Positions 86 to 41,290 of a DNA stretch of 45,940 nucleotides are shown here, piece by piece (the stretch's first letter is position 1; every line of letters begins with the position of its first letter). Location of the stretch: the NCBI GenBank assembly GCA_910592345.1, contig CAJVPI010000175.1, forward strand, positions 1 through 45,940, read 5' to 3'. This DNA is from Paraglomus brasilianum (lineage: Eukaryota). Below the pieces are notes generated by a model. It had not been told where the DNA came from. It searched no databases and saw only the letters and a list, made by a program, of their open reading frames with translations. The translations under genes were made by a program, and so were the position numbers.

Positions 86-1465
86 TAGTTCGTGATTATG
101 TAATAAATAGACAATTGTTACGTGACAATTCACATAATAATCATTTTGCATTGTTTTAAGGCGCGACCAAACATCTCGTGAATAAGAGCCCCCTTATATG
201 GGCCCTTATATACGGTAATTAAGGTATGGCGTTTCAATAGATAATATCATGCAATTTTATTGGTTAATAAATTCTATCAGGGACGTTTGATGTTTCGACC
301 TTTCTACTGATTCATCTAAGCGCAGAAGTTTATTGCGCATGTATCTAATATCATTTTCTGTTGCAAATTCTCTTTGTTCTAAAAATTCTTGACCGTAGCT
401 TCTCTTCCTACCTTTATGGATATCTCCTTCACTTAAATTTCATATCTGTTTGTGTCTGTTGTAAGACACCTTCAGTCGGAAGAATTTTTTCGATGAGTAA
501 TGGTTTAACACTAATGAGACTGACAATTGGTAATTTGATTTTTGAACTTGGAAATTGTTGTCTTTTATTTATTTTTTGACTTAATGTATGGCCTGATTTA
601 CGGCCTGATTTATGTCTCGACGTTGAATTTATGGCCTGACTTTTTACTGTATCGAGAATCGTGACTAACCAAATGAAACAAATAATCAACATATTCTATC
701 ACAAATATTCATATATAGAGATGACATGATTTATTGTGATACATATTATAGCACTTTTCAAAATAGTATGATCATCATCAAAAAAAAAATTGAAAACGAA
801 AACAATTTCAGCCAATAAAATCAGTTATAATCGCTTCATAATCAGTTATAATCGCTGGTGTAACAACCCAACAAACTTTCTTTTCTTGCCTTGCGCTAAG
901 TAAAGAGGTAAAGTTGTATTAAGTAGGCGTCTTCTACTCTTCAGAAAGGTTTAGTAATCACTGGCTCGCAGAAGTTTTCACGAAGTTTTCACCTGTTTTC
1001 ACGTTGTAATCGTTGTTTTCGCGAAAAAAGTTGTGACCAAATGTTGTGTGACTGCAGAATTTTGAAAAGAGCGATAATAATATATTAATATGGTTAATAA
1101 CCCCCCCCCGTGTATAGCACCCTGCAGTTTAGGCCGGAAAAAATGCAAATCAGATATTCTATTGAAATAAGAATATTATTTATTACTGTATTAATTAACA
1201 TCGATATTGATATATGGACAACACGTACGAGTTTATACACTCTCTCACTTGCTTTGGTTCAATATCGAGCCTTCTCTCAGTGTCGCAGATAGAATGATAA
1301 TGATAATAGTAATAAATGACAACAAGTTTTTCTCTTGCTGACCACGTCTCGTAGGTTTGTTAGCGCGAATCATAATGAGCTACAGCACGTGAATCCGTTA
1401 TGTATTACGCAGCTTTTATTATAGTATGTGTTACATAAACACTATGGGTGTACCATACCGAATAC

Positions 1466-1531
1466 CCACTGAGTAAAGTACCCCTCAAAAAAAAGTGAAA
1501 TATAAAATACCCGGGGTACTTTAGTCAGTGG
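1466..1531. repeat. Inverted repeat / miniature MITE-like hairpin
   Basis: CCACTGAGTAAAGTACCCC (1466-1484) pairs with GGGGTACTTTAGTCAGTGG (1513-1531), 18/19 complementary, across a 28-nt A-rich spacer. Confidence 0.7.
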
Positions 1532-1710
1532 TATATTATGGAAGTAGTCATGTTATTATTAGTATCTGATAACGGCGAGTCAACTAGTCTGTAACCAAGC
1601 GGTTTGATTTCAATTGTTTGGCTTCAGTAATTTTAAATTTTCCGCTTGTAATCTAATAGATGTCTTGCAAATTCATTCGACTGTGTTATAAAACCAGACG
1701 GACTATGTAT

Positions 1711-1876
1711 CTGAAGTCTAAGGACTGGGATGCTAAGGTCCTGAGATACCGAGGTACTGAGGTACGGAGATGCCGAGATGCTGAGGTGCTGAGATGTTGA
1801 GATGCCGAGATGCCGAGGTACTGAGATGCTGAAGTGCTGAGATGCTGCTGAGTGCTGAGGTGCCGAGATACTGAGA
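1711..1876. repeat. Degenerate 8-bp minisatellite (consensus CTGAGATG/CCGAGGTA)
   Basis: About 20 tandem 8-nt units, e.g. CTGAGATA CCGAGGTA CTGAGGTA CGGAGATG CCGAGATG CTGAGGTG CTGAGATG. Confidence 0.85.
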
Positions 1877-4082
1877 AAGTTTTGTTTTCCTTATATAGAT
1901 GTGATCGATATAATATACCATATATGGTAATCGATTCGTCTCAATTCAGGTACTCAGATTCGCAGGTTTGCAGATTTTGTCACTTTTACTTTTATACTGG
2001 GGTACACCGTAGTTTAGGTTCAAAGTGGCTTATCTTGTAAATTCTTACGATCAAGTACGATTTACAGTCTGGATTTGTTGCTTCCCACATTACGATTTGT
2101 AAGAATCGATAATTACCAAATTTCCCAATATTATGTGATGCAGAATCGTTGGTATTAGGTAATAGCAAGTACAAATATACTTTCATTAGGGTAATTAATT
2201 TAGGACAAGGAGAACAGATTCTAAATGTCGTGTCAATACTTCCGACTCGTGACATTGATTATGCGTAAACGTTTGCAATGATGTCCCACCATAAATAAAC
2301 CTGGCTATTCAATCACCAATTAATTAGGTCAATTATCTCTTAGTCGAATATCTTCTCTCTGCATACGACAGACGTGTTATTCGGGAAGTCCATACTCTAC
2401 ATTCATTTGATGACTAACAAAAAGAGAGCTTTAGTATATGAATTTGACCTGATTTTTTATACCACCATGTATAGTAATGTAAACACTGCAGATATGATGT
2501 CCGGTTTTGAATTATAAAATGCGTTAGTAATTTTAGCGAAGTAGTAGTTGTAACATAAATAAGCATTGTGATTTTTTTTTCAAAGCATTTAATTGTTTTG
2601 CGAGAATTATCCTTATAATATATTTATAAGAAATTAGACACACATGCTTTACTTATTTTTGCGAGAAAATCGCTTTGTAGACAATTTACAACAAAACTTT
2701 CGGTCAAATAACACAAAATTTTACAAATATGCTCCTCATATTGTAACAAGCGTCTTACTTATTGCTACTTACGAGCACATTCTATTGCCTTTATTATTGT
2801 CATTTTATTTGTTCGTATGTAAATCCCGTCACTGTGTAAATCCCGCTTGGGGTCCCTATATGTAAATCCGGAATTTACATACAACATATTCAATCTTGGC
2901 GGCATACTATAAATCAAATTAACACAATTATTTCACAAAAGACCTCTGATTAATTAAGACTGGCTATTTGACCAAGATAACTACGTTTATTAAAAAAGTT
3001 TGGGCTGATGTAGACATATTGAGTATCGTTCGCTCATAGTGGTTATAATTTTGCGATGTTGGTCAATCCAATGTTATTTTAGTAAAAGAAAAAAACAAAA
3101 GTGTAGACAAATAGAACTTAATCGCGCAAACTACAAAATAATGTGACCGAGTTTTTTTGTCGATACAAAGATAGAGTGTGCAAATTGTGTTATTTGATTA
3201 GACGCGTATTTTGCAAAAAAAAAAAATTAAAATAAAAATAGTGCTATTGATTTCAAACCATTTTTTCGCACACTATCCGTGTTACCATATTAGTTAATGT
3301 GTTGGCAAATTTTATAATAACCTTAAATGCACATATCTTATTGTTATTTAATTCAAAACGCGTCGAGCAAAAGTTTACGTTTGTAGCTTATTCGGCGGTT
3401 TACTTTTTATCTAAAGTAAAGCATTCACTCTGACGAGCGTTACATACATTATATTATTTCATAATATTATACTTTCTGAAAACACGTATTGCAGAGTGTT
3501 GTAAACGAGTTGTAGTGCAGAAACCAGCCATTAATACTATTTTCTTTACATATTACATCCTGGAAAAATAATGGCGGCATTGTAAGTAATGTTGTTTACG
3601 ATAACAAATTCTAAATTCACAAAAATTCTCAGTTTTTGCAATAGCTTGACACAAAAATCGGATAATACTAGTAGAGGTGATTCGCGAGTAGTTTTTAAGG
3701 GCCAAGTTAATAATACCGACTGTCGGATTCTAAGGCTACTTAATATAGAATCTCGTTTGACTTGTGTGATTTGTTGGTTTCGCATACCATTCACTCTATG
3801 TTACAGAATAGATTACGGGACGTGATTCCGTGTGAAATTTCAACTTCCAGAACACTTCCGCTTTCGTTAGGTGAAGGCGCATTCCATCATGTTACACCAT
3901 ATAGTAAACAACAACAATAATAATAAAAGAATGGGCGTATGATTTGTTTCACAAATCAAACCTACTTTTTGAGTGATTGGCCACTATCTCATCTACGCCC
4001 AACATACTTATGTCACCCCAACAATATAATCTTATCTCAACAGTCTCAACTATCCCTTTCATTTCCCCCAACCTTGTTCACC

Positions 4083-4723
4083 ATGACTGCCCTAAGGAGT
4101 ATCGTTTTCTTTCTCATACTGTCTTGCGCTTTGACTAATGCTAATGTCATAGACAAAAGTAAAGTATTCATCAACGAAGCTGTTTCGTATCTTGGTGAAG
4201 CTCTTTCACCCCCGGTAATTCAAACGGAAACAATCACCGACTGCGGAAGGTCGTCCGATATTCTCCAGATACACTATATAGACATACGACCAGATCCTCC
4301 GCAGAAGGGACAAGAGCTGACGATTGATGCGGCTGGATTTTTGACCGAAGTTGTGGACCAGGGGAGCTACGTTGACGTTATGGTGAAGCTTGGATTGATT
4401 AAGCTGTTGCAGAGACGATATGATTTGTGCGATGAGGTGACCAAAGTCGACAAGCAATGCCCTCTCGAAGGATATCAGACTTTACATCATTCGTTAGAGT
4501 TGCCTAAAGAGATTCCTCCTGTACGTATAAAATAAATTGGTATCGGTCGCGCGCACTGGGATCTAGGTTATCTTCATCACCTGTTTACGAGATCGATATT
4601 AATCGCTTGATATTTTATTATTCTGTGATGTAATAGGGTAGGTATATCGTCGACGTCAACGCATACACGCCCGATCACCGAAAAATTGGTTGCTTGAAAG
4701 TAATAGTTACTTTCCGTCCTTGA
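4083..4723 (+). CDS. NPC2: ML-domain (NPC2 / PG-PI transfer protein) secreted lipid-binding protein; 2 exons (4083-4520, 4637-4723)
   Basis: Signal peptide MTALRSIVFFLILSCALTNA. ML motifs DCG...IDIRPDPPQKGQELTI, VKLGLIKLL..YDLC and CPL...LPKEIPP|GRYIVDVNAYTPD..IGCL, joined in frame across a GT-AG intron. Confidence 0.92.
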
Positions 4724-5270
4724 TTTGGACGCTTATAAAGATGGGCTTATTATTGATGAGCATCTCTGTAATCGACTTTCGATAGTCACCAAATATGTTG
4801 TACTGTAATGTGGTACAAATGTTCCAATGACTTTGATGCGTTGGATTTATTACGTAATAAACTCAAGCATTCTACTAACCTTGTTAATTCTAATTCGTTC
4901 ATCATGCATGAATTCATAAAGTGTTTGCGTCATCTGGAAACGGACGTATTGGGGGTTTATACCGCATACATTCAGAGTAAGGATGTTTTTTAGAGTACTT
5001 TTGCTTTTGCAAATCATAAACGTTACGCAAGACTGAGCATCGCGACCTTAGTTACGAGACACGATTCTCGAAAAAAAAAAAGGGGTTTAAATTTATGCAC
5101 ATTGTCAGTGCTTACTTATTGTGCAGTACAAATACGGAAGCGGAGTAGAAATAAGAATGCGTCAATTCGGATTGAGAAAAGTCGCTTCTAGTGCATGGAA
5201 ATATAGCACGAAGGATTTTCATCATTTATTTTAATATATTCACTTAAAGTCATTCAGTCGATCCATGTAA

Positions 5271-6769
5271 CTAGAAATCAAGCAACCATTTACGATAATA
5301 AATACACTTTCGGGGAGTTATCAAACCCTCATCCGTGCAATCGTTAAACACCTAGATGGAAACAAATTTCAAGCGTTAGGATCCAGACTTGACAGAGTAT
5401 GATTCATCGAGCATGCTCACCGGACATTTTCCACATGGCGTATCAGTCCACGGATTACCACCACCTCGTCTATCCTTCACAGCCTTGTATACAATCTCGG
5501 GCTCATCATCGTCGACATCGTTCAAATCCATCGCGGCTGCTCCCGAGTCGGATATCCTTCGTTCAATCTTACCATCAAATATTAGTAGATCAAGGAGACT
5601 GTTGATATGATCGAGCGAGAGGTCAACTGTGGTCAGTTTGCTTTCTTCAATAAAGCGGTGAATTTGGACCGCACTTACAAAACCACCACGAGAAGCTGGA
5701 AAGACTGTGTAAGCATCTTTTCGAGGAAAGCTCTGCCAGGTTTTGGTAAATGAGGAAGAGATATCAATTAGGACAATTTAAATTGGCAGTCTACAAGTGG
5801 AAATATGTCATTGTGCATTACCTACCCTTGAATATATGAACTTGTGTATGGCTTTTGTGAGTGTCTCGACAAAGTCTGTATCCAACTCTTGATCAGTGAA
5901 CCAAGGACCACCAGATACCTCTGCTGAAGGTGTCAATTCATAGAGCATATATATCTTACGAGTTGGAGCCTATACAATAATCGAGCACGATAAATTCAGT
6001 TGTCAGATTGCCAAGGCTGCCGACAATTTGTTATTCATGTCCGATGTTCCTAATTTTTGTGCTTGGCTCACCTTGACTGATTTAATGGCTTTTATAAGCT
6101 GTTTCGATTCAAGATTCTTTAGACTTCGCGTTATGACTGTCTGATGAAGATTCGTCTTGGTCTTTAAATTGCGTGTCCATATTCCTAAACGTAATATAAA
6201 TGGTGATGAATATGTAACCAAACTTTTAGATGATATTAACAGTATATAGCCCTTAGATACCTTCATTCCCAGCAGCTTTGATTGTATTATATACTAACCT
6301 ATCATCTTCATCTAAGTCGTTTATCCTAAACTTTATTTATTAGTCAAACAATGACAGTCGGACAATATTTTACCGGACGTTCCGCGCTCTTACTTTTTTC
6401 TATCAGAAGCTGTCACCGCATTATACGTTAATTTGCCATCTTTATCTGAACGCATCTCAATGAGGCCCTGTAGACACAGCATATGGATTAGTCTTGTGTA
6501 TTCTATTTGGAAATCAATCGGTTACAAACTTGCTTGGGTACCTTTCGTGACAGGCTGTTGATAATTTTTGCCACATTTTCGACAGGAATTTCACAGTTCT
6601 TGGCAATTGACGAGCCTTCGCTGCCCTAAGAACGGTTGGTTACGGATTAGCTTGGTGCTCGATATACGGGCGAAACAAACAGAGCAATAGTCGAATACAC
6701 TAATAATACTTTGGGTTTTCCGTTAATGTATTGATATACTTTGAGCTCCAATTCAGACAATCCTCCCAT
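5271..6769 (-). CDS. RPC34: RNA polymerase III subunit C34 (RPC6/POLR3F), multi-exon
   Basis: Starts MGGLSELELKVYQYINGKPK. Contains GIWTRNLKTKTNLHQTVITRSLKNLESKQLIK and LTPSAEVSGGPWFTDQELD. The C-terminal Cys cluster TPCGKCP|VFNDC...ITPRKCIYYRKWL is the Fe-S-binding tail. Stop at 5271-5273. Confidence 0.93.
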
Positions 6770-7439
6770 ACTGGATACCGATCTTTGGTATTTGGACAAG
6801 TGTCATCCAGTTCGATGACGTTTGACTTGGTGGCTTTGACGTTGATAATCAGTGGAGAAAGCGCAGTATTTTCGGGCGAACATCGGTATTTCCTTTGTGT
6901 GGTAGGTGTTACAGAGGTTAAATTTGGTTTAGTTACGTAAGGATATTCAATCTTACTTCCATTTATGAAAAATTTATCAGGCTTTATTGACCGAATGCTG
7001 GTCGGGATATATTCCGATATGTCTCCCCCCTATTCGGGAAAACATGATCCCGAAAATCCCGATCCAATACTGTAGATATTTTGACTATGAATGGGAAATA
7101 AACAAACGCACATAATCGCATAAACTGAATATTTGATACAGCATATCTTGTAGGGATTTCCGACATTGTTAAAGTAATTTCTTTATTAGAGACATGTATT
7201 TTGTTTTCCATAATCAATTAATTTCAACCATGTGTTACACGATTAGGCTTTTGACAACTGATACGCGTATCGTTGAGCCGATGTTCCTGATATAACGAAT
7301 AAGTATAAAAGCAGCCGTGTTGTCACGACATTCACTGCAGTTGTAACGCAACTAAAAGTTCATTAGCGTCAAAAGAAAAGAAGAAAAAAAAGGAGAGGAA
7401 AAATAAATAAATTAATCTTAATTCAAATAGCATCATATC

Positions 7440-10400
7440 ATGGCGTCCTATAAACAAGAAATAGAAGAACCCAGCACAGCACACAGTTCAAACAGTTCCG
7501 AAACCACAACAATCGAATTATCAAATGATAATACAGGAAAACTTGATTTCGAAGCAGCCGACAAAATAATGACCCAATTACATGACGAAAAGGATCCCAA
7601 GAAAACACCCACCAGTGACTCTGTCGAAAGCCTGGCGATAACACAGTTGTTCCGTTTTGCTGATAAATATGACCTTATCCTAATAACTTTCGGCTCAATA
7701 GGTGCCGCCGCAAACGGTGCTGCTCTACCTCTCATGACTATCATATTTGGAAACATTATCAACGCATTCCTTACATTCGCATATACCGCCCAAAGCGATC
7801 GTGAACATCTCGAAAGTGCAAAGCAAACAATGACGCACGAAATAAACCGAAACCTTGTTCTCTTTTTAATTCTTGGTGCTTCGGTAGTGGTTCTGGCATA
7901 TTGTCAGATGGCGTTCTGGATGCTTTCTGGAGAAAGACAAGCAAAGCGTATTCGTAACCTATATTACGCCGCAATCATGAGACAAGATATTTCGTGGTTT
8001 GATAAAATCTCAACTGGTGATGTAACAAGCCGTATTTCTGGCGACGTTACAATTCTCCAAGAGGGTATTTCTGAGAAAGTGGGATCGATTATTCAGTATA
8101 CTTCTACGTTTATCTCTGGATTTATTATTGCATTTACAAAAGGTAAATAGTGTGTTTGTACTCAAAATTCAGGTGATCTGTCCACGTGAGACATACTAAC
8201 CAGTTAATTTTACGTGTTTTCCTTGTAGGATGGAAATTATCTCTAGTATTATGCAGTGTCTTCCCTCTTCTTGCCGTATCTGGTTTTGTCATGGCCAAAG
8301 CAATGGCACGCTCGACAGTGGCAGGACAAGGTATGTTGTATCCTAATTGTATTTTTGTATCTCGAATCAAATATCATATATATATATATATATATAGGGA
8401 TAAATTGTCTGATCACCCAAATTTTTGAAAAGTATTGCTAATAATAAATTTATTATCTAGACGCTTACGCGGCGGCCGGCGCAGTTGCAGAACAAGTTAT
8501 CTCTGGAATAAGAACTGTAACCGCATTTGGGGGACAACAACGTGAGCTAAATCGATATATCGCACGATTGAATGATGCGTACAAGGCCGGCAAGAAGAAG
8601 GCATTGGTCAGCGGTCTTGGTTTGGGTGCGATGATGGGTATAATCTTTGCAGCATACGCGCTTGGATTCTGGTATGGTGGTCGCTTGGTTGCGTCCTCTG
8701 AAGCAAATGGAGGAGAAGTACTGAATGTATTTTTCGCCATTATTATCGGTGCATTCTCACTTGGTAAGATCTAAATTAGGACTGGAAATGGAATTGGCTC
8801 ATTTTATTCTTCTTGTTTCTAAATATAATTTCTCTCTTTAACAGGTAACGCGTCTCCGAGCTTCTCTTCGGTCGGTAATGCTCTGGGTGCAGCAGCAAAT
8901 CTATTCGCTGTGATTGATCGCGTTCCTACAATAGACGTCACCAGCCCAAGTGGCAAGAAACTCGACAAAAGTTCTGTCAAAGGCAGCATTGAATTCAAGA
9001 ATGTCACATTTTATTATCCACAACGACCTGACGTACTAGTCCTAAAGGATTTCAGTTTGACCATTGAAGCCGGAGAAACAGTTGCCCTTGTCGGTAGTTC
9101 CGGGAGCGGTAAAAGTACAATTGTCGGTTTGTTGGAGCGATACTATGATCCGAACAACGGTACAGTGTATCTTGATGGGGAAGACTTGAAGAAAATTAAT
9201 CTGAAATCAATGAGAACACAAATCGGACTCGTCGGTCAAGAGCCCGTACTTTTCCCAGAGAGTATCGCTCAGAATGTCAAATGGGGTGCTGACCCAGACC
9301 ATACACCAACTATTGAAGAAGTCATTCAAGCATGCAAGAAAGCTAATGCTCACGAGTTCATTGATGAATTACCAAATCAATACGATACACTTGTTGGTGA
9401 GAAAGGCGCCTTATTGTCTGGCGGTCAAAAGCAAAGGTAAATGGCGGATAAACGATGATTGAAGAGAGTACTCTACATGGTGTAATAGCAATTTGCCATC
9501 ATGCATTTTTCAACTGCTAACAAGTATAATAATGTCTTTTTTAGAATCGCAATTGCGCGAGCTTTGATCAAAGATCCTAAAATCCTTCTTCTCGATGAAG
9601 CCACCTCAGCACTTGATACAGATTCTGAACGTCTCGTACAAGAAGCCCTCGATGCAGCCTCGCACAACAGAACCACCGTTGTCATTGCTCATCGTCTCTC
9701 CACAATCAAGAATGCAGACAAGATCGTTGTTATGTCCAAGGGTGAAATTCTCGAAATTGGCAAGCATGATGAACTCATTGCTCGTCAAGGTGCTTATTAC
9801 AGCCTAGTCAAAGCACAAGAATTGAAAACTAAAGGCACAACTGAGATTGATGGCGACGAGAAGGATGATGACAGCTCTTCTGCTACAGCTAGTCAATCTG
9901 AGGAAGCTATTACCATTTATGACGAAAAAAGACCCAAGGCTTTCATGCGTCGTATGTCTACCAAGGCATCCGTAACGAAATCGGTTAAAACAATTGACGA
10001 CATTAAAAAAGAAGAAGAAGCGGTTTTAAAAGACGAAAAAACTCCTTTGGCTCGCGTATTTAAGCTCAGTAGTCCGGAATGGCCTTACCTTGTTCTTGGC
10101 GCTTTAGGTTCTGCTGTCAACGGAGCTATTATGCCGCTTTTTGCATTGGTCTTCACCCAGATTCTTGATGTCTTCTCAAAAATTGGTGATCCCGATGGTA
10201 TTCGCAGGGATTCTGCGTTCTGGGCTGGCATGTTTGTTGTCTTATCTGCTGTCGCTTTTCTTGCTAATTGTGCACAAGCAGGCCTCTTCACATTTACCGG
10301 TGAACGTCTCACTAGAAGACTTCGTGCCATGACATTTGCTGCTCTTTTAAAACAAGAAATAGGATTCTTTGATGAAGAAGATAATAACACTGGTGCATTG

Positions 10401-11890
10401 ACGTCTAAACTCGCCACAGATGCGTCGAGAGTCGATGGTTTAGCTGGTAGCTTAATGGGTACTATTCTTCAAACAGTTTCAAACGTTCTTACTGGGTTGA
10501 TTATCGCGTTTGCAAACGGTTGGAAGATGACTTTGGTTGTGCTGGCTGGAAGTCCAATTATTGCTATTGGTGGTTTCTTGGAATTGAAAGCACTTGCTGG
10601 GTTCGGCGCTAAGACGCGTAAAGCATACGAACAGTCTGGACAGGTTGTGCAACAAAGTGTATCTAACATAAGAACCATTGCTGCCCTGTCTCGTGAGGAA
10701 ACCTTCAAGCAGCTGTATCATGAAGCCATTGTTAAACCTCATAAGATTGCTGTTAGGGGAGAATTAATTGCCGCTATTGGATTTGGTGCCTCTCAAGGAC
10801 TTGTATATTATGTTTGGTCACTTGCCTTCTGGTAAGTATTTGATTATTGGTAACATTAATATATAATTTCATAGATCAACGAACTGACAGATGTTTGACT
10901 ATTGATTTTCTTACCAGGTATGGATCACAATTAGTTAAAAACGAAGAATATACCGTTAAACAAATGAATATTGTGTTGTTCTCGGTCATCTTCATGGCTA
11001 TGGCTCTTGGGCAAATGAGTACATTTGCTCCAAATAGTGCCAAGGCTAAGCTCGCAGCCATATCGATTTTCCGACTCGTTGACCGTAAATCTGCAATTGA
11101 TCCTAGCCTTGTTGACGAGAATAGGATTCGTCCTGCTCCAGTGACCGGTGAAGCTCAAGTTCGCAACGCAGTTTTTAATTATCCAGCACGACCGGGAGTA
11201 CCCATCTTACGTGGATTGGATATGGTAGCGCATTCTGGAAAAACAGTTGCCCTGGTTGGTCCATCGGGATCCGGAAAGTCGTCTACTATTGCATTATTGT
11301 TAAGATTCTACGATGTAATATCTGGAGCTGTGAATATTGAACGACACGACGTGAAAGAATGGAATCTCGAATATTTGCGCTCTAATATGGCACTCGTTGG
11401 TCAGGAACCCGTACTTTTCGACTTGACTATTGGAGAGAATATAGCGTACGGCAAGGAAGGTTGTTCGCAGGAGGAAATTGAAACAGCAGCAAAAGGAGCC
11501 AATATCCACAACTTTATTACATCGTTGCCTGACGGATACGATACGAGCACAGGTGAACGCGGTACACAGCTTTCGGGCGGACAGAAGCAGCGTATTGCGA
11601 TTGCGCGTGCACTCATTCGAAATCCTAAAGTTCTTCTTCTTGATGAAGCCACATCAGCTCTAGATTCCGAGTCTGAAAGCGTAGTACAACATGCGCTTGA
11701 CGCTGCCTCTAAGGGACGCACTACAATTACAATTGCACATAGATTATCTACAATTCAGGGTGCTGATTTGATTCTTGTGATTAAGAAGGGCAAAGTAGTT
11801 GAACAAGGAAAGCATCTTGAACTAATAGAACAGAAAGGATTATATCACGATTTAGTAAATAAGCAAACGTTAATGAAAAAGCAAGGTTAA
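7440..11890 (+). CDS. Full-length ABCB (MDR/P-glycoprotein-type) ABC transporter, about 1319 aa; exons 7440-8142, 8229-8330, 8461-8763, 8845-9436, 9545-10831, 10918-11890
   Basis: TMD-NBD-TMD-NBD layout. Walker [10 protein letters not shown] and GPSGSGKSS; signature [15 protein letters not shown] twice; Walker [12 protein letters not shown] twice. Exon lengths sum to 3960 nt (in frame). Confidence 0.96.
8376..8396. repeat. (AT)n microsatellite in ABCB intron 2
   Basis: About 10 AT units. Confidence 0.8.
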
Positions 11891-12394
11891 ATGATTACGA
11901 CAATACTTTAAATTGAATAGACTTTCAAATATAGATAATGGTGTACACGAAAGGTAGAGTTTATACGGATGTTATATATTCCGTATTGTAATAAATAATT
12001 GGTAATTATTTAATACCAGACAAAAAAAAGCCTTACATACAGGAAATGTACCATACATTCAAATGAATATACTCAGAAATACTGTAGATAAATCCTTTAG
12101 CCCTCCCTCACGTCTGACTTGAAATGGACTAGATCATCGCACCTTGCCAAAAATCTTAAAATGACATATTTGAACTCAACTGATAATATTCCAAATATTA
12201 ATTCTACCTTTCCTGAGGGCACTAATCATATTTAAATTTTCGCCCGCATTAACACGATCTAGAAAAGAAAACAAGGGTTTGATAAATTTCGATAATAATA
12301 AGTAATAGATCTAAATAATTCTTCCTTTCAATAGGGTTCACGCACTCTGTGCAAGCAAAAAGTAAATTCACGTGGAATTGCCGTTTAGAATATA

Positions 12395-12532
12395 CAGTGG
12401 ACTCTAAGTGCAGCTTCTCTAAGTGCCTAAATGCAGGCTCTGGTTTGGTCCCGAGATTATAAGACCATTAAGTATTTCACTCTATAAATGCAGGTTGTGT
12501 CATATGGTCCCGTCGGTAGGGAGAGTCCACTG
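12395..12532. mobile_element. Tc1/mariner-pogo-like MITE (138 bp)
   Basis: Perfect 11-bp TIRs CAGTGGACTCT / AGAGTCCACTG, with TA on both sides (12393-4, 12533-4). Internal AARTGCAG and TGGTCCC repeats. Confidence 0.85.
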
Positions 12533-13854
12533 TAATCTGCTTTTTAATGAATTTTTATGACAAATAGCAGGCAAATTTCGCACGTTAACATTAAGGGATG
12601 AATGTAATACATTAATAATCTGTCCCCTACATATGCATGCGCGAAGGAATATTCCCGCGCGCCCCTGACCAGAGTCCGTGACACTATTGATGATCCGAGT
12701 GTTCGGTAATCATTCTACCAACCGGAAAAATACTATCAAAAAAAAAAAATTTGCTGCAACAAAAGCTGAAAGCAATTCCACTCCCTGTTTATATTGACCA
12801 TGGCATTACAGCTGCTTTCAGGTATTTGACAAGCTTTATGGAATCTTCGATCGTGCATCAAGATCTGTTTTGGTATCCAAGCAGGAAGATATCGACATTC
12901 TTTGGCGACAAGAATTTTTTGGTAAAAATACTCTCTCGCGGAGCGAACCACTCTGGGCTTTCAGCTACGAGAAAAGTAAGAAAGGTAATAAGAGGCAAAG
13001 TGGTTACACTTGATATTTTTCAAACGCTTGATTTTTTCTGCACTATATTTACCACACATTACAAGTATTATACATCTATCTTTATTAAGTTGGCTGGAAC
13101 CGTCATGATATCATTAACATACGGTGTAATCCATTCAACAAGTTGGCGAACAATTTAACAAGAACAACATCAAAATCCAACTTGCTTTCTGAGCTTGCAG
13201 AGACAATTGCAAATGATTATGACTCCCGGGATTAAAAAATAGCTCATCAAACCGATCGGCCATACCCCTCAGTCAATATATAAGTGCTCAGAATTATCCT
13301 CCTTTTACTTCTTCACCGAAGCCCTCATCCCTTGTAGCAACATACAATGTTTAGTGCATATTAAATTTATGATCACGTGTCTTACGTTATAAACTACTAG
13401 TGAGATGTAAGGTTATACTGTAATTATGCTTTATATATTGATATTATTTCGCCTGTCACTAAGGTAACTAGGCAATAAAAGGATATTAAACGAGCAATAT
13501 ATCTAACAAATAAAGAATGGCAGCAGTGTTGCCAGTCAACGATCGATCGCCTTTTCCTACTTCAATTAAGGAATTATATCGTTCATTGTTCGCTCCGTTG
13601 GGCTATTGCTAAAACAAATATCATCCGTATTATTCTTTTCTTGGCCAAAGCAATTACCAGCACTTACGATATGATAAGAAATACAATCAAATCTGGTTAT
13701 AGTACCTTTTTATCAATTATACTGATAACGGCAAATTCTATTTTATTATCATTAAATTAAAAGTGCATCTATTTGTCGAAGCTCACAGTTTAATCTACGG
13801 CGGTCTTGCAACTCGATGTGGGTGACGGCGGTCTTGCAAGTCACAGTATTCAAG

Positions 13855-14100
13855 ATGTAAACCTATGAGAAAGAATATACATAAAATAACGAAAAGATAT
13901 TGGTAGTAATATTCCTGACCAGCAGGGATAATACCGGTTAGCTGACAGAGTATTAAAAAAAAGCTTAATGCGACCAGCGCATAAAAACGTCGCTTCTATA
14001 GAAAAGCGAGAGAGTTCCGAAGCTGTTCTCCGTCCTTTGTTAGCTATGTTGCCACAACGAAGCTTGGGATAATAATAAGGATGAAGGGTTCGAAACCATG
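13855..14100 (-). pseudogene. Decayed membrane-protein ORF fragment of unknown family
   Basis: One frame reads GFEPFILIIIPSFVVAT*LTKDGEQLRNSLAFL*KRRFYALVALSFFLILCQLTGIIPAGQEYYYQYLFVILCIFFLIGLH: three hydrophobic segments and two TAG stops. Confidence 0.35.
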
Positions 14101-14245
14101 ACTATAACTCGCTTTTTTTTATTCTGCTTATTATTAGAACAACTACTACTGGCCGAGGTTCTTGCTATTCATATCCTTCCGCATCATCTCAATCGGCCAG
14201 TAAAACTTCGCCATATTTAATTTCTCCAGTTATTTTTACTTTCCC
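14095..14245 (-). pseudogene. mazF: MazF/PemK-family toxin, N-terminal fragment (bacterial type, decayed)
   Basis: Reads GKVKITGEIKYGEVLLAD[TGA]DDAEGYE[TAG]QEPRPVVVV, then a frameshift, then SNNKQNKKKRVIV. This matches the MazF/PemK pattern I.RGE...AD....G.EQ...RPV.V.SN...N....VIV. Confidence 0.72.
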
Positions 14246-14259
14246 GGGTTCCTTTTTTT

Positions 14260-14375
14260 TTATCAGTCTTCTCCACCATTTTTTTACTCGTCGGGTCATT
14301 AGCCCGCTTTTCATAAGCTTCGGCTAGTTATTTTCTTCCTCTTGCTCCCCCTACTTGGCTGATTTCCTAGGTTGA
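14260..14375 (-). pseudogene. Probable antitoxin fragment directly upstream of the mazF-like fragment
   Basis: Frameshifted pieces ..EISQV.. and LAEAYEKRANDP lie immediately 5' of, and co-oriented with, the toxin fragment, as in type II TA operons. The call rests mainly on position. Confidence 0.4.
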
Positions 14376-14412
14376 GGATAAGTCCGGTATTTCCAGAATT
14401 TTAACCGAGAAT

Positions 14413-14847
14413 ATGAAAAAAAAATTTATTTAACTGTATGTTGAAAATAATAAAAATATCTAACCAAGAAGAATCAAGCAAATTAGAAAAAATTAAAGTT
14501 GGCGGTTGAGTAAAATTAATCCGAGAAAGCCAAGAAAAGATTTTTATTACTTTGAATGATGGTTCAACCATCAGTCATCTTCAAATAATTACTTCACGGA
14601 AAATTTCCTGCACTTAGATTTATTGACGAAAATAAATTTCGGCAGCAGTTTATTAGCAAGTGGTAAATTTAATTCTTACCCCCCAACGCGAACAATCTTG
14701 TGAACTGGATATTTCTAAAATCGAGTTTGTTAACTCTGCGATTAGGAATTATTCTCTACCAAAAAATATATATTCCTCTCATAATTATTACCATTTACGG
14801 GCTAAACCCAATATAATTATTTTTGGGTGATTTTTCGCTTAAGACAC
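14413..14847 (+). pseudogene. asnS: Asparaginyl-tRNA synthetase N-terminal (OB-fold/hinge) fragment; bacterial type, intronless, TGA at the conserved Trp, several frameshifts
   Basis: Four blocks: 14462-14599 KIKVGG[TGA]VKLIRESQEKIFITLNDGSTISHLQII; 14614-14667 LDLLTKINFGSSLLASGK; 14669-14812 LILTPQREQSCEL...NYSLPK...HLRAKPN; 14815-14847 NYFWVIFRLRH. They are collinear with the AsnRS motifs V.GWV..R...FI.LNDGS...LQ, G.S....G.L...P...Q..EL, YPLQKK and HLR.RTN.F..IFR.R. Confidence 0.85.
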
Positions 14848-14985
14848 GGTAAGTCAATTGTGTAACATTATATATACGAATTTTTTATACAATTTAAAGT
14901 GTTTTAAAAGAATGTAAAAAATTTCATGTGACAATAATAAATATTTTTTCTCTCATTTTTACACATTCCTAGACACTTGTTACAG

Positions 14986-15545
14986 AATTATAAACGAAGA
15001 GATCCAGTTGATCACGCAAGTTTAGAACAAGCAATTTCGACAATCTTAGACAACAGAATGAAAATTTCAAATGCACGCTCCCAGAAGAAGCTTGTTGGAC
15101 CATGTGTTATTTGTGGAGCAGAAGGGTTGAGTAAGATTCCGAAGATTTACTGAAGACGCTTATCATAAAGCTATGCAGCATGGAACTTTAGCTTCTACAT
15201 GGGTATTAAACATTAGTTAGTTCTGTCAGTCATTGCATGAGTTACATTGTACGCGTTACTGCTAAAGGTTCTGAGACATCTGAGAATGTGGTTCCTTCAA
15301 AGCGATGATGGATACAAGGTGAAGCAGTGACAGAGCAAGTTGGTCGTTATGATGGTCAACAAGAGTTAATAATGGAGACATCAGAGGTAAGTGACGATGG
15401 GAGAATCAAAGAGATTAATTTTATTGATCGATGGCGCAAATTTTTATACAAGAAAAAGAAAGAAAGTACTAGTATAGCTGGAGTTGGAGTCAAAGAATAA
15501 TGGCCTCAAACCATTCCCCAACCTCCTTGAGAAGTTAATTAATCC
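14986..15545 (+). pseudogene. Decayed Cys-rich, probably transposon-related fungal ORF
   Basis: NYKRRDPVDHASLEQAISTILDNRMKISNAR...GPCVICG / FRRFTEDAYHKAMQHGTLASTWVLNIS*FCQ / ...KFLYKK / ELESKNNGLKPFPNLLEKLINP, with stops and frameshifts. Family not recognised. Confidence 0.4.
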
Positions 15546-17865
15546 GAGTGGTAGAGGTAAAAGTTGCCACCGATGGCCTTCACTAATTGAGTGACCTATC
15601 AATGAAAGATCGTTTAGTTTTGATAAAAGACTGCTTGAGCGCATAATTGCAATTAAAGAGTCAAATAATGTAAAAATAATTCAATTTCTTGTAAACATAA
15701 ATTTTATTATTTCGATTATAGAATGCGCGCTCTTGAAATACTCGGACCCAAAGCCATAACCTATTCTTTGGTCACTCTTACTCTGGTGCAAATTAAGTTT
15801 CATTATCTTTTTTACTATCACTATTATTATCACTGTTAATATTCCTATGTTGTGGAGTTGGCTATTATAAATTATGCCATTTAGCAACAGGCCGAGAACA
15901 AAGCCAATAAATACTCCAAAAAGAAATTCGCTTGTGAACGTAAGTATTTTTGTAGATGTTATTGGTGGAAGTTGACAGATTTGTTTTATTACTTTAAACG
16001 ATGTATTGATTTCTAAAAAGTGCTGTTTTATAATAAATTATCATCACTGCAGATAATCATTAAACGCGAATTTCTGCCACTGATCAGGGTTAGTATTAGT
16101 ATATTGGAACTAATTTTTTTTCGAACATGACAGAAGAGTTAATAACGCAAAGGCGCGGCAGCAAAAAGCAGAGGAGGAATGGGACAGTTTTAAGGACGAC
16201 ACGGACGGCGGGAAGTTGCTAAACACGTTAAGTGACAAGGAGATCCTTAGTGACCGGCTGATTTATATATATATAAGACTAAGACTGATCCCATGATCGA
16301 CAATTTAATTTGGTACGCGATCCAGCCAGCGCCACTAGTTAACTTGGTTCTTGGAAATTTTCTATGCTGATACCTTTTGTTTCAATTTTGGTACCGATAA
16401 AGGGTCTTTGCCGTTGATTGTGTTAACATTTTCCCATTTGTAATAATAGAGGTAAGCAGAACGTAATCGCTAGTTATATAAGCGGCCCTTATCCCATCGT
16501 CAAATTTTCATGTTGTATATGTTATATATGTTGTATATGTTATTTAGTTTGTTCATATTATTTTCCATTAAAATATCAAATAAACGATTCCCTTTGAAAT
16601 CAAAATTTTACTTTCTTTCATCGTTGCAATATTAATCACTCAAGCTGTAAAAACGGCTCACTTAAGCTGTATAAATTATCGTTGATCTAGTACTCTTAAT
16701 TGAGGAACGAGAGTTTTTAATTATTATTTAAACGAATATTGTTTAATTAGTTTGAGACAAGTGACAGAATTTGACTAGTCAAAATACCAAATCGAAGATA
16801 GCCCCGTTTAATATTAAATAGAATTTATTCCCCTTCGATTCCGCGATAAAAATAATTGTCGTTATTATTTTATTGTGGGTACCCTTATTTGGAATTACGA
16901 GTGATTTGAAGCTCGAATAGGGAGTTGAGAGGCGCGCATTTAATTTAATTGTATAAATAGGTCACTTGTAGATTAGAACTCAGTCTTAATTGAATAACTA
17001 CCGTAATAAGGGCGGAGCACGAAGCTAATCTGGTAATAACCCCCGGTCGGAAGAACACCCCTACGCGAAAGATTAATCGCTCTCCCAAACCCCAGACCAT
17101 CCGACCATAACAACTTTCAGGCACTGCACCAAAAGCTGTATCTGAGCAAAGGAGCCCTCTATGTACTCGTGGTGCTTTGTTGAGTACCCGTTATTATACT
17201 ATCAGTACATGCATGCATTGAAATTGTCAAGGATTTTGCAATCTGAAAATTTTATTTGTGGGTTTACAATTTAATTTGTTTTCTGCTGTCATCAATTTAA
17301 TATTAGGTCTAATCAGTTTATTCATTCAAAAAATATTGCTTAGCTTTTCTCGCTTTTTAATTTTTAAAGTTTTAAACAAAAAGAAGTATTAAAAAACAAC
17401 AACAACAACAATATGTATTTAAAAAAATAAATAAAATAAACAAAAAATATCCTAGAAATCCAAAAAGAAAGCAATAAAGCACTAATGAATGAATTAGAAT
17501 TAAAGAGAAAGATGCAAAAGCTGATTAAGGCATTGAGCGAAGTTGGCAATACTGACAATCCTGATCCTGGAAAAGATTGACCTGCGTTCTGTAAAAGTTT
17601 CCCTTTTAAGAATAATCGGCAAGGTCATATTGGATTACTTTGCAGTATTATAATATGTCATAATAAAACACGCCGCTTGTTATCTTGTAAGGATAAAGGC
17701 GTAAAGCGTTTACATGGAGTTTATATCGGATGTTTCTATCCGGATTTGGCGTGTACTACTGCATTACGGGGTAGAATGTGACCTGATTTTTGCAATTACA
17801 TTGGCCAAATTTGTATATCAGCCAATGAAATTGCTCTACCCCTCATTATAGTAATAGTAATAATC

Positions 17866-24950: not shown

Positions 24951-29871
<4,921 letters not shown>

Positions 29872-31118
29872 GTTAAATGCTATGGGAGAAAGGAATGTAG
29901 GGTATTAATTGTTGTTATAAGATTTTGCCAAATGATAGAGAATGAATAATAATAATTATTATTTATATTATCAGTTGTAAATCAAACGCTTACTCGGGGA
30001 CACAACCTGAGCAGGACCGCAGCAGGTAAGTATGGTTGTCAATGCGCGGCCAGGAAATAGCGATGCTCTAAGGTTCATTCACTAAGGTTGGAAGAGTACA
30101 TACTGTATCTACGCTGACGGGTCGTTTTATTTATTCTTTTTGGTGTTGTGGGGACTGCTTACACCCGTATTACGATAACGCCGCCTAAGGAGGAAAAAGG
30201 TAATTAGCATAATTCGGCATATTAATATGATTACCATTTTGCATGCCAGCAGATACAAGGGCCCAAAAAGTATGAAAGCCATAACACATAAAGCGCGCAA
30301 CGAACCGTTTTTGTTAACATCAGTACTAGCATCTCAATTAACTTCATACCATTACAGTAAGTTTTATTTAATTACACGTTTTAATATTAAAGAAAGCAAT
30401 AATAATAACAAATTAGTGCACACAAAATCAATTAGTAAAGCATATTAATATGTAAACTATTCATTTCCGAATTCTCCTTGTATCCAGCAACTGTACTTCC
30501 AGAATAAACTATTAATAGTACAAATTACAAGTTTGCTCTGACATCGAGGAGCATCTCGAAATTGTTCACTCGTACGCTCATTCCCGAATTTTGTCAGTAG
30601 ATTGGGTTTCATCGTTAACACAGTCTAATCTGGTCATAATGACTCAATCGTATGGGTACCTGATACGTGTCTCGGTCATGAGTTATAGCCGGCAGTCCTA
30701 CAACTCTAATCTTAAATAATATTGTGAAAATAGCAAAAGAGTAGTTCTAATAACAATGTTCCCGTATTTATAGCAAGTGTAATTTAATTTATACAGTTCA
30801 AAAAAAATTAACATACGTATAAAGTGCATTAGACAATTTTGTCGCCTACTAACATTTCTAAGTAGAACTCATGTAAGCCTACACGAATTGATGGTTATAA
30901 CTATACATAATAAAATGCTGACTAGCTACATATTAACACCAGCCGTGAATGTCGAATAATTATTTCTATGCCTACAGATACAGAGTCCGATCGTATTAGA
31001 ATCAGCATTAATATTATGTCAAACGCTTATTATTATTCAGATTTTTGGTTGGTGACCGGAAGAACATCATTGCTCAAAATAGGACCTGATTATCATCCAG
31101 CTACCAACTATTTTGCAA

Positions 31119-40006: not shown

Positions 40007-41290
40007 CTACAATCGTCCCTTGAACAAAGTCTTAAAGTTGTTGTTATGGAAGAACTTATCTACAATCATTGGTTCGACTATAGGCACCAAGCTTTTCCAT
40101 TTATTCTTCTTAGCACCTGCATAAATCTTAGCACCCCACCCTTTTATCGTCGCCAAATCTTGATCCGCTTCACTTTTTGAGTAGGAAGTGAACACGCAGG
40201 GAATATCCTTCTCGATTAAACAATGAACTGTCGGCATCCAGAGTTCCGTATCGTCTTCGTACAGACCAGAGTTAAAGCCGACTGCCAAATGAGGTGTTAG
40301 AAACTCTGATGATTGGACGTATTCATGGTATGCTCCCTTGAAAAACACAATATTGCGTGTCCTTTTAGCTTCTGTACACAGTGAGCAACAGTCTACGGAA
40401 ACATTCTTGCTATCTGGTATGTCAAACCCTATAAGCACCATTCGCAAGGTTTTGAAATCAGGCAAGACGTGCATCAGTTCTTCGTAAGCCATCAACGACA
40501 TTATCTCAAACTGTGCAGCGCCGAGTATGTGAATAACAAGTTCTTCCAACGAATGCAATGTGTTTTTTTTATAAAACCGCTCCAATGCTTCAAGAACGGT
40601 TAATGGTCCAGACAGAGAATGTGAAGCTACACGTGCGTATTTTGGGATAAAAGATGGTGCCTTACGCCAAGCAAAGTATGCATCCCAGTCTGCAGGCAAT
40701 GGTGGAAAAGATTTCGACTTGTCCCATGTCTCTGGAGCCCATAACACTCCCTCACCACCCCGTTCGTACTGTATCATATCGCACTCAACCACCTGTTCGT
40801 ACGTCTTACAAAGCGCTTGATGCTTGGAGCGATGAATGTCCCAATGTTCATTAGAGCAACATGCAACTACTCTGCAATTTGAGCAGGGGATAAACTTTTG
40901 CGGACTTGTCAATTCCAAGGGTGTCAGGAAACATACTTGACATTTAGGCTGAAAGAACAAGAAATTTTTTTCTGCAGCGGTAGCTGGCCTGTCTAGTAAA
41001 TCGTCTAATAGACGAATGTGTTGAACGATGCGTTTATTCCATTCAGACTCGCCTTCACAAGGCCACCATGACTCTTCCAAATTTGCAAGATCATACAGTG
41101 CTAAGCAAAAGTGCTTGTGATCAGGAAAATCTATTTTTTGACATTGTTTTGAGCAATAATATGACATACGGCATCTCGCGCAACGCAGAAGAGCTGGGAC
41201 GTTGGCTTCATGACTTGTCTTGCAACAACTAGAACAAGCTATTCCTTTAATTTGAAGTAGAGTTTTGCGCTTTCGCAGGTCTTGTTTCAT
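40007..41290 (-). CDS. MYND zinc-finger protein with an MSS51-like C-terminal domain (intronless, 427 aa)
   Basis: C..C...LLRCARCRMSYYCSKQCQKIDFPDHKHFC, a second MYND-like Cys/His cluster, LSGPLTVLEAL, LVIHILGAAQFE, PHLAVGFNSGL, W.PT...L....IPCVFTSY and NKWKSL. Confidence 0.85.
   Translation of the reverse strand: MKQDLRKRKTLLQIKGIACSSCCKTSHEANVPALLRCARCRMSYYCSKQCQKIDFPDHKHFCLALYDLANLEESWWPCEGESEWNKRIVQHIRLLDDLLDRPATAAEKNFLFFQPKCQVCFLTPLELTSPQKFIPCSNCRVVACCSNEHWDIHRSKHQALCKTYEQVVECDMIQYERGGEGVLWAPETWDKSKSFPPLPADWDAYFAWRKAPSFIPKYARVASHSLSGPLTVLEALERFYKKNTLHSLEELVIHILGAAQFEIMSLMAYEELMHVLPDFKTLRMVLIGFDIPDSKNVSVDCCSLCTEAKRTRNIVFFKGAYHEYVQSSEFLTPHLAVGFNSGLYEDDTELWMPTVHCLIEKDIPCVFTSYSKSEADQDLATIKGWGAKIYAGAKKNKWKSLVPIVEPMIVDKFFHNNNFKTLFKGRL

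Follow-up and report, generated by a model that had tools for sequence, protein, structure and literature searches.

The 45,940-nt stretch analysed here (the window) raises the question of how pieces of bacterial genes, each with an in-frame TGA at a conserved Trp, came to lie in the contig of a fungus. The names Mollicutes-related endobacteria (MRE) and Candidatus Moeniiplasma are used for the same organisms throughout.

Host contig and sequence data

The window is a eukaryotic contig in which genes are densely packed. Intron-split eukaryotic genes occur throughout, including those for an ML domain protein, Rpc34, an ABCB transporter (ending at 11890), L13, an AAA ATPase and MSS51, so that the bacterial pieces do lie between intron-containing fungal genes as first proposed. 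The product of an intronless gene at 40010–41290 fell into the same 90% cluster as a protein of Paraglomus occultum, one of three proteins looked up being present in the collection. Judged by sequence, the host is a Paraglomus-related fungus. The bacterial pieces sit in a stretch of approximately 8.7 kb without recognisable genes. Six-frame searches of 1–3.9, 11.9–20.8 and 44.6–45.9 kb revealed no bacterial Pfam family worth note, an Rfam search of 11900–17400 gave no match at E≤0.1, and phage blastn returned only two 24-base matches, both chance. No second MRE fragment was found in the window: outside the insert, the 71 MRE-type ORFs matched only the host's ABC transporter and, weakly, one further stretch. 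Elsewhere, an intergenic degenerate 8-bp tandem array of about 18 units was present at 1709–1855. At 27037–29382 (− strand) lies a long exon that has a run of poly-Gln together with repeats rich in Gln and Gly; an SH3 exon at 29446–29904 apparently belongs to the same gene.

Part of the region 13000–15600 was contained in 20 sequencing runs, four from one sample and 16 from soil or rhizosphere metagenomes. Contigs, as distinct from raw or long reads, were compared from four of the 20 runs (X1, X2, X5 and X7). X1 and X2 are two libraries of one sample, probably that behind the assembly, X5 is a soil run (63% of it covered) from a separate study, and X7 is a further soil run. The run search was for DNA, and none of the runs containing the region is recorded as RNA.

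The asnS fragment

14438..14850, + strand: fragment of an asnS pseudogene covering the OB-fold anticodon-binding domain, approximately residues 1–143 of 454; catalytic domain absent

The fragment represents the 5′ third of the gene. It matched the NCBIfam asnS model at E=1.2e-8, and an nhmmer DNA profile built from 13 of 17 metagenomic MRE-type asnS loci aligned to 14466–14850 (envelope 14445–14870) at E=1.4e-69, with the next window match at E=1.7. Five frameshifting indels (−1, +1, +1, −10 and +5) were present. The TGA at 14507–14509, about codon 20, corresponds to the Trp of the AsnRS GGWV motif. The 17 metagenomic relatives (28–40% GC) were gathered with a degenerate window-derived motif allowing either TGG or TGA; their long ORFs run through TGA, and TGA occupies this same Trp position in nine of the 17, some loci being near-duplicates.

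Among 30 candidates from 5.8 billion proteins searched, six matched, and all six were MRE-type AsnRS (63–80% identity); one is named for GvMRE of Glomus versiforme and another derives from a Cetraspora assembly. With the frameshifted asnS piece as query, a representative search gave five matches (three AsnRS and two spurious), and the PDB yielded one AsnRS chain at E=0.003. When 301 Bacillota genomes were scanned for a code-4 asnS, 140 matched, none with internal stops. Some database entries were themselves irregular. P0001 is a truncated or fused AsnRS in GvMRE, while P0005 and P0008, also truncated or fused, are annotated as fungal (Cetraspora and Funneliformis) and are MRE-type in sequence; the latter two are probably MRE contigs within fungal assemblies.

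In an AsnRS tree of 58 rows, which included no AsnRS of mitochondrial or cytosolic type or from other Mollicutes and whose in-group was collected with the motif from the window, the window fell inside the MRE-type clade that includes the GvMRE protein (support 100/100) and, within that, inside an 11-row subclade (99/93). The rows comprised the window, 12 loci, five named or database proteins and 40 of 80 outgroups; L090 and L093 (near-duplicates), L094 and L096 (too short) and L095 (duplicate) were dropped. The outgroups came from a GTDB scan with MRE-type AsnRS that yielded at least 80 loci, those listed being non-MRE. Identity of the window AsnRS was 48–67% to MRE-type rows compared to at most 39% for the best-scoring of the 80 other bacteria. 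Invariant AsnRS residues were altered at eight of 44 positions in the window compared to 0–5 of 49–54 in leave-one-out controls, a count in which several changes adjoin indels and near-duplicates lower the controls.

The mazF fragment and its probable upstream partner

14075..14279, − strand: mazF (PemK/MazF) pseudogene fragment, about residues 1–73 of a 158-aa Moeniiplasma protein
14260..14385, − strand: probable 3′ remnant of the mazF upstream partner (antitoxin) gene, from position only and translation

By itself, the mazF fragment matched Pfam PF02452 at E=0.0038 (17.9 bits, under the 23.1 cut-off). A search among longer proteins gave one match in six candidates, P0013, with 93% identity over 41 residues; this protein carries PF02452, and its 90% cluster of 11 members includes the NCBI entry 'PemK/MazF toxin [Candidatus Moeniiplasma ...]'. 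In a frameshift-aware alignment, 65 of 72 codons were identical to intact P0013 (score 291), with one stop and three frameshifts. Alignment to P0014 scored 248 compared to at most 31 in 12 shuffles. The lesions are a premature TAG at 14167 and frameshifts near 14258, 14140 and 14092, the alignment resuming as a further piece to about 14075, and the C-terminal half is absent. The in-frame TGA (14191–14189) is located at a Trp that is kept in all eight cluster members covering the site. Each clear MazF change can be explained by a single G>A or C>T step; with only about nine changes, too few to judge, the idea of a RIP-like CpA bias was given up. The run MVEKTDK is the N-terminus of MazF itself. 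By tblastn, all ten matched plasmid records were annotated PemK/MazF (E 0.8–6). Homology to the PemK/MazF family was therefore evident, while an intact full-length coding sequence was not found. No close MazF was detected in the 301 Bacillota genomes at E≤1e-25, and neither a MazF relative nor an antitoxin motif was found in viral contigs.

The putative antitoxin remnant overlaps the start of mazF and ends in GAC TGA TAA, which is Asp-Trp-stop in code 4. The N-terminal extension of P0013, which is out of frame, also matches over this overlap. No antitoxin homologue was found in Pfam, NCBIfam, PHROGs or viral contigs; by its position, 14260–14385 is probably the end of an antitoxin-type partner gene.

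The original prediction had been of a bacterial asnS piece on the + strand and a mazF piece on the − strand, both frameshifted and each with an in-frame TGA, donated by a code-4, Mollicutes-type endosymbiont. Each element of this was borne out, the TGA codons falling on two of two conserved Trp positions and the donor being identified as Moeniiplasma by the best asnS matches, the AsnRS tree and the MazF cluster. Both fragments are of MRE origin and carry code-4 Trp codons. Between them, the stop and TGA codons, frameshifts and truncations leave no intact reading frame under the nuclear code.

Limits, composition and internal structure of the insert

14068..14860, no strand: whole MRE-derived insert, by homology limits (left end 14068–14075, right end 14850–14870)
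14386..14433, + strand: hsdR-like (type I restriction R subunit) 3′ end, last ~13 codons and stop, by alignment to locus L088

The left end had been placed at 14095 and is corrected to approximately 14070–14075. MazF homology begins where the left-flank repeat copy ceases to match: in X2 contigs, a paralogous copy of the left flank matches up to 14067 and is followed by 1,586 unlike bases. To the right of the insert, weak AT-rich similarity possibly extends to about 14906.

The insert had also been described as AT-rich, which held only marginally. Its GC content was 33.7%, compared to 36.0 and 35.9% for the flanks, so AT content does not mark it; the mazF half was at 39.3% and the asnS half at 29.9%. 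A 4-mer model distinguishing MRE from host was trained on MRE-type loci with the 5′ part of asnS taken out. The three best of 226 400-nt tiles covered the insert, and both flanks scored host-like.

The sequence at about 14386–14435 aligned to the region upstream of asnS in L088 with a score of 50, compared to a maximum of 25 in 300 shuffles; this match was found in one of 16 loci tested. The ORF upstream of asnS in L088 matches SWI2_SNF2, T1R_D3-like and ResIII and is hsdR-like. This 3′ end had not been noticed earlier. An hsdR-like end directly upstream of asnS is thus an arrangement that the insert has in common with an MRE-type locus. Among L081–L097 the gene upstream of asnS varies, being hsdR-like, a putative rpsL, a putative rplT or another gene. 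Such variation is in line with heavy shuffling of MRE genomes.

Since only the last 13 codons of the hsdR-like gene precede asnS, an internal break is placed near 14385, where hsdR is without all but these codons and the probable antitoxin is without its 5′ part. The insert is made up of two MRE segments head to head, with each outer end also cut mid-gene. The break may be explained by the joining of two fragments at insertion, by a later mid-insert deletion or by a rearrangement in the donor.

Linkage of the insert to its flanks

In X1, a single contig covered 12883–15017 over both junctions with no differences at a depth of 174, with other listed unique contigs at 176–250. In X2, a single contig covered 12464–15120, again over both junctions, with no substitutions and one gap at a depth of 29.5 (others 19–37), and entered repeats of far higher summed depth on either side. 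A comparison with nuclear coverage had been proposed as a check, and on these contig depths the insert is linked to its flanks at nuclear depth. It was single-copy except for a stretch of approximately 50 bases of asnS in X1.

X5 contigs matched the insert at 14121–14372 (one difference in 252) and 14719–14927 (one in 209). On the left side they covered 13941–14094 (three differences) and 13252–13665 (two), and all X5 contigs over the insert and flanks were at a depth of 3.0–3.8. The left-junction contig had only 20–27 bases inside the insert, below the 31-base rule. The right-junction contig ran 57–77 bases past 14850–14870, or only 21 if homology reaches about 14906, and it crosses the junction provided that this lies at or before 14896. 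A 918-bp JGI/IMG contig also encodes a protein (P0012) identical to the frameshifted mazF reading of the window. The decayed insert is common to at least two separately sampled strains.

X7 contained near-identical flank pieces and no contig of the decayed insert; at its depth of about 2 this absence proves nothing. Three short asnS contigs in X7 had intact-type bases at 14517 and 14531, so the window bases at these positions are derived. One X1 contig (depth 81; window region 14495–14545) likewise had the intact-type base at 14531, and a live MRE or a second asnS copy may therefore be present in the X1 sample. The listed contigs break at a repeat near 12455, and none of them carries the insert together with an intact gene that has introns; it is the window's assembly that connects the insert with the ABCB gene. 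No empty site was seen.

Two outcomes had been named as refuting the nuclear fossil: placement with fungal mitochondrial AsnRS together with the lack of a MazF match, and junctions left unspanned. Neither occurred, in the former case with a tree that was without fungal AsnRS. The contigs over both junctions at nuclear depth and the X5 right junction instead favoured nuclear insertion over contamination by a live symbiont, as had been claimed.

Flanking repeats and junction marks

13822..14067, no strand: left flank, decayed repeat of host-like composition, cut at the junction; copies 87–89% alike in X2 and X7
14861..15960, no strand: right flank, host repeats, high-copy from ~14990, by contig depth and host-like 4-mer score

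The 4-mer score of the left flank was −0.050 compared to the window median of −0.054. No match was found for its repeat family, and viral contigs gave one 14-residue match. Decayed frames at 13794–14069 and 12423–13158 (both + strand) were of host-like composition, had repeat copies and lacked any Pfam or PHROG match. In the right flank, summed contig depth in X1 was 1,150–12,000 compared to about 200 for unique DNA. Further right, a very high-copy dispersed repeat at 16350–17125 reached a summed contig depth of about 58,000 in X1 (near 16.9–17.1 kb) and about 33,000 in X2, summed depths of repeats not being equivalent to copy number; it was plentiful in both soil runs too. Between GTAAGT (14850) and CTAG (14971) the sequence resembles a spliceosomal intron, followed by a decayed frame bearing Cys-x-x-Cys.

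The surrounding repeats had been called fungal MITEs. They are indeed high-copy, and the MITE label was not supported: no convincing pair of terminal inverted repeats bounding the high-depth stretches was found among the longest 25 of 98 inverted pairs. No transposase or integrase family was detected in six frames of the flanks, and no target-site duplication or terminal repeat was seen at the insert. The left junction showed a 2–3 base GG microhomology and a (TAT) stutter, which are suggestive only.

Origin of the insert

The insert is best explained, at a probability of about 0.9, as a dead 0.8-kb fragment of a Moeniiplasma chromosome in repeat-rich, Paraglomus-related intergenic DNA, likely captured by end-joining. 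The earlier reading as an endobacterial fossil in the nucleus is thereby supported with high confidence. In this sequence of events, a cytoplasmic MRE would have lysed or broken, and the DNA released would have entered the fungal nucleus, where a fragment would have been patched into a chromosome break in repeat-rich DNA by end-joining and would then have drifted as neutral DNA. End-joining is the probable route, as both outer ends cut genes mid-frame and neither target-site duplication, terminal repeat nor transposase was seen. As contigs from two studies support the join, the symbiont DNA is likely lodged in fungal chromosomes. From sequence considerations, the insert is probably neutral and functionally dead, since TGA is a stop in the nucleus and both catalytic halves are missing; with TGA as a stop, translation of the genes would have failed from the outset. 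The available text of PMC10507103 describes MRE genomes as rich in pseudogenes and repeats (7.3–35.2%), and some lesions may therefore predate the transfer.

The same nuclear fossil could have been delivered by a mobile element, be it a cassette or plasmid of the MRE or a transposon of the fungus that had captured bacterial DNA. Toxin-antitoxin and restriction genes are often carried on mobile DNA, and the insert is placed among high-copy repeats. Against this, asnS is a core chromosomal gene, none of the hallmarks of an element (transposase or integrase, terminal repeats, target duplication) were found in the flanks and ends, and the depth of the insert, the short asnS stretch in X1 apart, is that of a single copy. 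Delivery by a mobile element is therefore considered unlikely. A nuclear location would itself be mistaken if a pseudogene of a live MRE had been mis-joined to fungal DNA during assembly or amplification. MRE contigs do occur in 19 of 389 Mucoromycota assemblies and Paraglomeraceae host MRE, according to the available text of PMC11423566, and the depth-81 contig of X1 possibly represents a live MRE. Such a chimera is nevertheless very improbable and largely refuted: in each of two separate libraries a single contig at nuclear depth contains both junctions, and the soil run of a separate study has the same decayed sequence over the right junction, with one difference in 209 bases.

The direction might also be reversed, with the 2–3 kb stretch being an MRE chromosome that acquired fungal repeats beside its own pseudogenes. 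Fungus-to-MRE transfer is documented in the available text of PMC10507103, no single listed contig joins the stretch to an intact fungal gene, and the left flank is without a family match. This too is very improbable, as in both libraries the depth equals that of the nuclear contigs nearby, the X2 contig enters far deeper repeats on both sides, the flanks are host-like by 4-mer and the window's assembly puts the stretch between intron-bearing genes. The remaining alternative is a mitochondrial origin, either as a NUMT or as a decayed copy of the gene that the fungus itself has for a mitochondrial-type AsnRS. TGA is Trp in fungal mitochondria as well, and the tree was without fungal AsnRS. The MazF and hsdR matches refute this origin, to which we attach a negligible probability: the neighbour of asnS is a Moeniiplasma MazF, the MRE-type hsdR-asnS junction is kept, asnS is nested in the MRE-type clade, and a nuclear-encoded AsnRS would use TGG.

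Relation to known transfers

Wolbachia-derived nuclear inserts ('nuwts') in animals and the NUMTs and NUPTs, including mosaic ones, are known kinds of insert. Like nuwts, the present insert is DNA from the chromosome of a bacterium living inside cells; it is cut mid-gene and decayed, occurs as a single copy amid host repeats and is common to individuals. Unlike nuwts, it has a code-4 Mollicute as donor and a coenocytic mycorrhizal fungus as host, and the difference in code would stop translation at the first TGA even before decay. With NUMTs and NUPTs it has in common the lack of element ends or target duplication, the internal breakpoint and neutral decay, but its source is a bacterial symbiont, the asnS, mazF and hsdR-like end all matching MRE.

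Gene transfer from fungus to MRE is the subject for which Naito 2015 and Torres-Cortes 2015 are cited. As given in the available text of PMC10507103, such transfer involves the same partners in the same intimate contact, but in the opposite direction and with intact annotated genes in the bacterium. Movement from an endohyphal bacterium to a fungal nucleus, as here, is described in the available text of PMC11291939, where NOD-like receptors passed from Mycoavidus to Mortierellomycota as intact genes; that donor is Burkholderia-related and uses the standard code, whereas the present case is a non-coding MRE fossil. 'Mollicutes' is mentioned zero times in that text, and a fossil of this kind is invisible to protein-based screens. 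The contamination screen in the available text of PMC11423566 likewise dealt with MRE sequence inside fungal assemblies, but took out whole MRE contigs, whereas here 0.8 kb lies in a 45.9-kb fungal contig with read-supported junctions. Bacterial gene donors in Rhizophagus are not known MRE in the available text of PMC5982333. In the text available from these sources and from bioRxiv 2021.09.13.460061, PMC13315312, PMC10386755, PMC12306442, PMC7732545 and PMC10463477, we found no mention of a fungal nucleus with decayed MRE DNA; subscription genome papers (Sun et al. 2019) and supplements may mention such inserts. The kind of event is known, while the donor–host pair and the MRE-to-fungus direction were not found reported.

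Significance

MRE cannot be cultured. The argument over whether they have resided in their hosts since ancient times or invaded them late has been based on mismatched trees (available text of PMC10507103 and PMC11423566). A nuclear insert places one particular MRE lineage in one particular host lineage at some moment in the past; it is evidence of DNA movement from MRE to fungus and a record of infection. Short MRE matches in fungal contigs are therefore not always contamination or live infection, and a dead insert is useful as a fossil marker. More tentatively, at somewhat short of even odds, the nuclei of arbuscular mycorrhizal fungi may routinely acquire Moeniiplasma DNA, giving a genome-wide, code-4-tagged record of past infections. 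If so, inserts at the same site across Paraglomus strains or species would date the entry of an MRE lineage into its host, inserts would reveal that lines without MRE today had once been infected, and together they would provide a direct test of the late-invasion and ancient-inheritance hypotheses.
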